DNA of 64,000 nucleotides, taken from NCBI RefSeq assembly GCF_058153355.1, contig NZ_CM177019.1. The stretch is one strand, 5' to 3'. The notes under the pieces are model-generated. The model had not been told where the DNA came from and searched no databases. It was given only the letters and a program-made list of their open reading frames with translations. Below, in pieces: positions 23,241-23,655 of this stretch; position 1 is the stretch's first letter; each line of letters opens with the position of its first letter. The translations under genes were made by a program, and so were the position numbers.

Positions 23241-23480
23241 TCAAACCATCACCAGCGATAACTCTTTGCCAAGCGCCTTAGCCACAAGCTGGACGGCGTC
23301 GATTTTTGTCGCATGGTACAAGTTAAAAAAGCGAGTAATTTCCTGTTTAGGTTTGCCAATTCGCCTGGCTAACTCTTGCTGAGTGATTTCTGACTGTAAA
23401 AAAGCATTTAACAGCAATACCTTAGAGGCGACGCTCAAAGGCACTTCAATAAAGTGATCGTGACTATTTAATGGCGAAGT
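23241..23480 (-). pseudogene. hicB: hicB antitoxin remnant (C-terminal HTH portion only); hicA toxin absent
   Basis: Reading frame open only from the stop at 23481-23483; remaining residues ...LNSHDHFIEVPLSVASKVLLLNAFLQSEITQQELARRIGKPKQEITRFFNLYHATKIDAVQLVAKALGKELSLVMV match the HicB C-terminus; no HicA-like ORF in 23484-23655. Confidence 0.6.
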
Positions 23481-23655
23481 TTACCTCCGTGTGTAATGTG
23501 CTCGAAAATAGCACTTAATCGCCGCAACGGCAGAATGCAATGCAAAATCAGGAAGGAAGATTCCAGAATTTCTTTGCGCTAATTTGCAAAACTGAATAAT
23601 AACCTCAAGAAACGATCGGCATCATAGCGGCAAAAGGTGAGAAAAAGGTGGCGGG

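Follow-up and report, generated by a model that had tools for sequence, protein, structure and literature searches.

A 445-bp deletion has removed hicA and the 5′ part of hicB between yncJ and ydcR in Escherichia

Between the intact genes yncJ and ydcR, we found a remnant of hicB that is very probably a nonfunctional relic of a chromosomal hicAB type II toxin-antitoxin operon. The remnant lies in a 64-kb stretch of DNA, hereafter the window, that probably comes from a divergent Escherichia lineage under-represented among complete genomes. Over 12 kb (positions 18000-30000), the window shares no more than 98.0% identity with any of 5426 complete E. coli genomes and 90-95% with most. This unusual lineage bears only on the private substitutions in the remnant, not on the kind of feature. 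The neighborhood at 23241-23655 follows the K-12 order yncJ-hicA-hicB-ydcR in reverse orientation (Table 1).

Table 1 Features at the yncJ-ydcR locus of the window
Feature	Position	Strand	Description
ydcR	21756-23162	-	Intact flanking gene, 468 aa
hicB pseudogene remnant	23241-23480	-	C-terminal HTH_3 domain only
Stop codon of remnant	23243-23241	-	TGA
hicB codons 61-138	23477-23244	-	Retained part of hicB
Hybrid junction codon	23480-23478	-	ACT
GTG-start ORF inside hicB remnant	23241-23444	-	67 codons
Deletion junction	23480/23479	-	GGAGGTAAA then CTTCGCC
In-frame stop codon	23481-23483	-	TAA directly upstream of remnant; derives from retained hicA upstream sequence GGAGGTAAA
Retained yncJ-hicA intergenic region	23484-23655	-	Assigned by alignment to K-12
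yncJ	23656-23886	+	Intact flanking gene, 76 aa
rlhA/ydcP	23982-25985		Next gene after yncJ

Limits of the deletion and content of the remnant

An alignment to K-12, as proposed in the original prediction for this locus, set the limits of the deletion to the base. The aligned set comprised the window, K-12, two short-allele E. coli genomes and one hicA-frameshift strain. Relative to K-12, the window has one clean gap of 445 bp (positions 768-1212 of the K-12 locus, L001), with loss of the 45 bp adjoining the 5′ end of hicA, hicA itself (58 codons), the spacer of 45 bp before hicB, hicB codons 1-59 and most of codon 60. The stretch retained between the junction and yncJ measures 172-175 bp. A perfect palindrome of K-12, GTAAAC-ACTAAT-GTTTAC (GTAAACACTAATGTTTAC), contains the left breakpoint. 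A search for short repeats near 23480, also proposed earlier, returned a 7-nt inverted repeat (AGGTAAA/TTTACCT) that brackets both breakpoints; direct homology amounted to only 1 nt (C at 23479), equal to the breakpoint ambiguity.

No HicA toxin gene (Pfam HicA_toxin, PF07927) stands beside hicB, because the gap spans all of hicA and tblastn of K-12 HicA against the whole window returned nothing credible (best E = 3.9). Likewise, HicB residues 1-60 gave no credible tblastn match in the 64 kb (best E = 1.5), and blastn of the deleted 445 bp against the window produced chance matches only, of up to 28 bp. The lost segment does not reappear anywhere else in the window. The original prediction had proposed a deletion of the toxin and the antitoxin N-terminal domain and had seen no hicA-like frame before yncJ; the single gap, the retention of HicB residues 61-138 and the tblastn result for HicA agree with it on both points, and neither an intact hicA nor a full-length hicB was found by tblastn in the 64 kb.

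On the minus strand, a frame is open between the two stop codons listed in Table 1 and reads TSPLNSHDHFIEVPLSVASKV...GKELSLVMV*; directly after the TAA, which had been correctly placed from the outset, it begins T-SPLNSHDHFIEVPLSV and ends ...SLVMV*. Its earliest listed start codon is the GTG at 23444. The in-frame C-terminal part of hicB, initially put at about 80 codons, consists of exactly 78 codons plus the hybrid junction codon. The predicted product is homologous to the C-terminal Xre-type helix-turn-helix (HTH) domain of HicB. It corresponds to residues 61-138 of the E. coli HicB structure PDB 6HPB chain B (phmmer E = 2e-43; 75/78 identical; matching structures 6HPB/6HPC), and the only Pfam domain detected was HTH_3 (E = 3e-8; 34 bits versus a cutoff of 23). 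In full-length K-12 HicB, Pfam places HicB_lk_antitox at residues 3-67 and HTH_3 at residues 88-134. The former (PF15919), the HicA-neutralizing N-terminal domain, is absent from the remnant according to both Pfam and tblastn, in line with the proposal that hicB had been cut down to its C-terminal HTH half. Compared to K-12 HicB, the window remnant carries three private amino acid changes, L111F, H115Y and A126V, all nonsynonymous. The closest remnant variants, with Q89P, were found in strain MFDS1022581 and in proteins from E. coli STEC_7v and Escherichia sp. HH154_1D.

The K-12 operon (hicA/yncN, b4532; hicB/ydcQ, b1438) occupies the same yncJ-ydcR site. The remnant is 96% identical to residues 61-138 of its HicB and shares its HTH_3 domain, and the intergenic region upstream is kept. 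Unlike K-12, the window lacks hicA, the HicA-binding N-terminal domain of HicB, the start codon and the promoter-proximal 45 bp; because these parts are deleted, the locus is predicted to be unable to work as a toxin-antitoxin module. Judged by gene content, it is not a member of the functional HicAB type II class, as both the toxin gene and the HicB N-terminal domain are missing. In an Rfam scan of positions 22900-24100, the intergenic region gave no credible match to an RNA family. Just 3′ of yncJ, at 23887-23930 on the minus strand, we noted a REP-like palindromic element with a weak match to naRNA4 (RF02564; 30.6 bits versus a gathering score of 59.5).

Selection on the remnant and signals for its expression

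Across hicB codons 61-138 (180 nonsynonymous and 54 synonymous sites), we compared 10 deletion alleles with 9 full-length alleles, the latter including two other Escherichia species; this sample is small, non-random and partly picked for divergence, and the statistics ignore shared ancestry. Variants private to the 10 non-randomly chosen deletion alleles comprised 11 nonsynonymous and 3 synonymous changes (site-corrected ratio ~1.1), versus 9 and 32 (~0.08) in the 9 full-length alleles, chosen in the same non-random way (Fisher's exact p = 2.7e-4, kinship ignored). Selection on the remnant is thus relaxed relative to intact orthologues at the same locus, in comparison with which it has also lost its start codon and N-terminus; both are hallmarks of a pseudogene. 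Decay has proceeded further in VCSW7 and AST20, where S90 has become a stop codon and the NCBI annotation pipeline PGAP records an 'internal stop'. The window and 8/10 sampled deletion alleles retain an open frame, which says little about function because 79 codons at ~3% divergence seldom gain a stop by chance.

The original prediction also raised possible continued expression of the remnant from an internal GTG. This suggestion found no backing in translation or transcription signals and is opposed by the neutral-like changes and the stops in some strains. By inspection, there is no Shine-Dalgarno-like (AGGAGG-like) motif in the 12 nt (CACTTTATTGAA) that precede the GTG at 23444. A strong GGAGG is present at 23488-23484, ~40 nt upstream of this GTG, with the TAA right after it. 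A sigma-70 consensus scan detected no promoter-like site between yncJ and the remnant, its sole hit being located before ydcR (23223-23196, minus strand). No exact copy of the window peptide occurs in a collection of 15 billion proteins, and the ancestral 67-aa form was called on only 12 contigs. We found no supporting evidence for the 67-codon ORF as a gene, and the remnant would appear not to be expressed. In K-12, we noticed by eye an ATG 9 nt after this GGAGG that opens a 54-codon ORF (777-941 of the K-12 locus, within the segment deleted from the window) overlapping hicA in another frame, probably by chance.

According to reviews that summarize Turnbull & Gerdes 2017 (PMC11594946, PMC8138530, PMC6957337), hicAB has two promoters, of which the distal one, P1, is CRP-S/Sxy-dependent. 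Within the 45 bp lost upstream of hicA lie an extended -10 motif (TGATATACT) and the greater part of the palindrome GTAAACACTAATGTTTAC; of the palindrome, the window keeps the left arm GTAAAC (23484-23479), while the right arm is deleted. We regard this palindrome as a putative HicB operator (hicO), and the putative HicB-repressed promoter P2 and operator would both fall within the deleted segment. The putative distal P1 probably lies in the retained yncJ-hicA intergenic region, and P1-driven, CRP-Sxy-dependent read-through transcription of the predicted hicB fragment is possible. A simple scan for CRP-S half-sites in the retained intergenic region and in K-12 gave no site above 7/10.

We considered whether the remnant could be a functional orphan HTH protein, that is, a small Xre-type repressor made from the GTG at 23444 or from a TTG two codons downstream. 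This is very unlikely, as are the targets that it might have, hicO-like operators of plasmid or prophage hicAB copies or other genes. In favor of this reading, the HTH_3 domain is whole, the HTH domain of K-12 HicB is described as a structurally stable unit (Manav et al. 2019, as cited in PMC11594946), most sampled alleles have kept an open frame and P1 may still give transcripts. However, the private changes have the 11:3 pattern expected of near-neutral drift, with several inside the HTH domain (G102S, P104H, L111F, H115Y), two of the sampled strains carry a stop, and neither a ribosome-binding site nor a promoter was found. Some annotations read 'helix-turn-helix domain-containing protein', yet flag the locus as a pseudogene, and gene callers seldom call the ORF. 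Orphan antitoxins are abundant in B2 sequence types (STs), where trans-acting roles have been proposed for them (PMC10790755); here, however, the cognate putative operator is half deleted, and a product without the N-terminal domain could not neutralize any HicA. Highly unlikely is the specific scenario in which the HicB HTH fragment would have been kept in B2-like lineages as a trans-acting repressor, weakly expressed from the retained P1. If true, a truncated antitoxin would have been domesticated into a regulator of incoming plasmid or prophage hicAB copies or of unrelated promoters.

Frequency and direction of the change

For a census of the deletion allele, we used a 50-mer centered on the junction, for which intact alleles offer no seed; a longer query of 90 nt proved uninformative, with intact genomes matching as two joined pieces. 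The identical junction was present in 1092 of the 5426 complete E. coli genomes (1053 of 1092 at >=99% identity). Its carriers include O25b:H4-ST131, Nissle 1917 and the type strain DSM 30083 = ATCC 11775. Scanning the GTDB species representatives for the junction sequence gave no match in a census that is incomplete for this locus. PGAP annotated the remnant as a pseudogene, 'incomplete; missing N-terminus', in 9/9 deletion-allele records inspected, naming it hicB in eight and 'helix-turn-helix domain-containing protein' in one. The deletion allele is, therefore, already known and routinely annotated as a common hicB pseudogene. The window copy shares its junction, limits and flanking genes with the B2 allele of ST131, Nissle 1917 and DSM 30083 but differs by ~1-4% in sequence and by L111F, H115Y and A126V. 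In a survey of 950 genomes, HicA-domain toxins were rare (<=20%) in B2 ST12, ST73, ST95, ST127 and ST131 (PMC10790755). The text of a paper on uropathogenic E. coli (UPEC) toxin-antitoxin systems (PMC3464220) does not mention hicAB.

Deletion alleles occur on several flanking haplotypes. This could reflect recurrent 445-bp deletion at a structural hotspot rather than single inheritance, with the bracketing 7-nt inverted repeat or the perfect palindrome at the left breakpoint as candidate hotspots, but an old allele combined with homologous recombination would give the same flank diversity. The most suggestive case was EcN_Sk (NZ_CP172017.1), which has the deletion on K-12-identical flanks. It carries B2-type structural alleles, namely the hicAB deletion, a curA-mcbR deletion remnant and the absence of IS200/insQ, yet its SNPs and proteins are identical to K-12 over at least 24 kb, the sole such haplotype among 1088 deletion genomes. 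EcN_Sk looks like an assembly that is chimeric or was guided by a reference. The usual B2 junction is found in genuine Nissle 1917 (NZ_CP022686.1), and we rejected recurrence on these grounds. It is also unlikely because the microhomology at the junction is only 1 nt, and hicA has been damaged in E. coli by events of other kinds, such as the 22-bp deletion described below. Overall, we consider recurrence highly doubtful.

The direction of the change follows from comparison with other Escherichia. Escherichia sp. E1V33 and a divergent genome labelled E. coli SCPM-O-B-8794 carry the full hicA-hicB between yncJ and ydcR. We retrieved these two outgroup genomes from the GTDB representative set by a conserved hicB 29-mer, in a scan that gave just two non-coli Escherichia and missed the E. 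coli representative, though K-12 has the pattern. The short form was derived by deletion, because other Escherichia carry the full operon and the short form starts mid-protein without a start codon; the earlier claim of loss, as opposed to a short original state, is borne out by these two genomes. The converse, in which a short ancestral form gained hicA and the 5′ part of hicB by insertion in K-12-like lineages, is practically inconceivable. Toxin-antitoxin modules are often mobile and the short form occurs in deep-branching lineages (B2 and that of the window), but it begins inside a folded protein (residue 61/138), and any insert must have made up the missing half of a gene with the reading frame exactly preserved. 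Complete operons also occupy this site in other Escherichia species, and strong purifying selection on the HTH part is seen only where the N-terminal part is attached.

Toxin loss at hicAB and related loci

Further lesions affect hicA in Escherichia. A separate 22-bp deletion, flanked by TGCG direct repeats, frameshifts the toxin and leaves hicB intact; its junction was found in 203 of the 5426 complete E. coli genomes, and we observed it in JNE131328 (positions 929-930 of its locus, L004) and 55989, corresponding to ~930-951 of the K-12 locus. In Escherichia sp. E1V33, a 1-nt deletion in hicA (GTCA-CCC; column 664 of alignment A2, K-12 codon His38) is a third, independent toxin-inactivating lesion at the locus. 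A truncation of the opposite kind was seen in E. coli CE0007a, with an intact hicA, a hicB without its C-terminus and an LprI-family gene replacing ydcR downstream. If real, this would be a toxin left beside a truncated antitoxin.

Loss of the toxin with persistence of antitoxin sequence has precedents. Toxin-first loss is described for ccdO157 in E. coli (Mine et al. 2009, as cited in PMC7167474). In the reverse-order, CRP-S-regulated toxTA system of Haemophilus influenzae, 51% of strains carry toxin-inactivating deletions, and no strain inactivates the antitoxin alone (PMC6957337). As in these systems, several independent lesions of one toxin gene are found at hicAB, and antitoxin sequence persists; in contrast to them, the antitoxin in the window is also truncated, and no functional antitoxin is left.

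The locus represents ordinary toxin-first decay of a chromosomal toxin-antitoxin system. In the course of events that we favor, a single ancestral 445-bp deletion with practically repeat-free ends would have removed the promoter-proximal 45 bp, all of hicA, the spacer and the first 59 hicB codons, which encode the HicA-binding domain. The HicB HTH domain would thereby have been deprived of its start codon, ribosome-binding site and proximal promoter. The fragment would since have drifted as a pseudogene, because with the toxin gone there is nothing to neutralize and with the operator gone nothing to repress. The allele would be old and either inherited or recombined among lineages; it is typical of phylogroup B2 and extends to the divergent lineage of the window.

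Alone, this finding carries little weight, but it offers a clean example of a toxin lost first and an antitoxin leftover then drifting. In annotation, hicB pseudogene rather than regulator gene is the proper label for the 67-codon HTH ORF, and in toxin-antitoxin surveys, strains with the deletion allele should be scored as hicAB-negative. The deletion allele marks B2-like Escherichia lineages.
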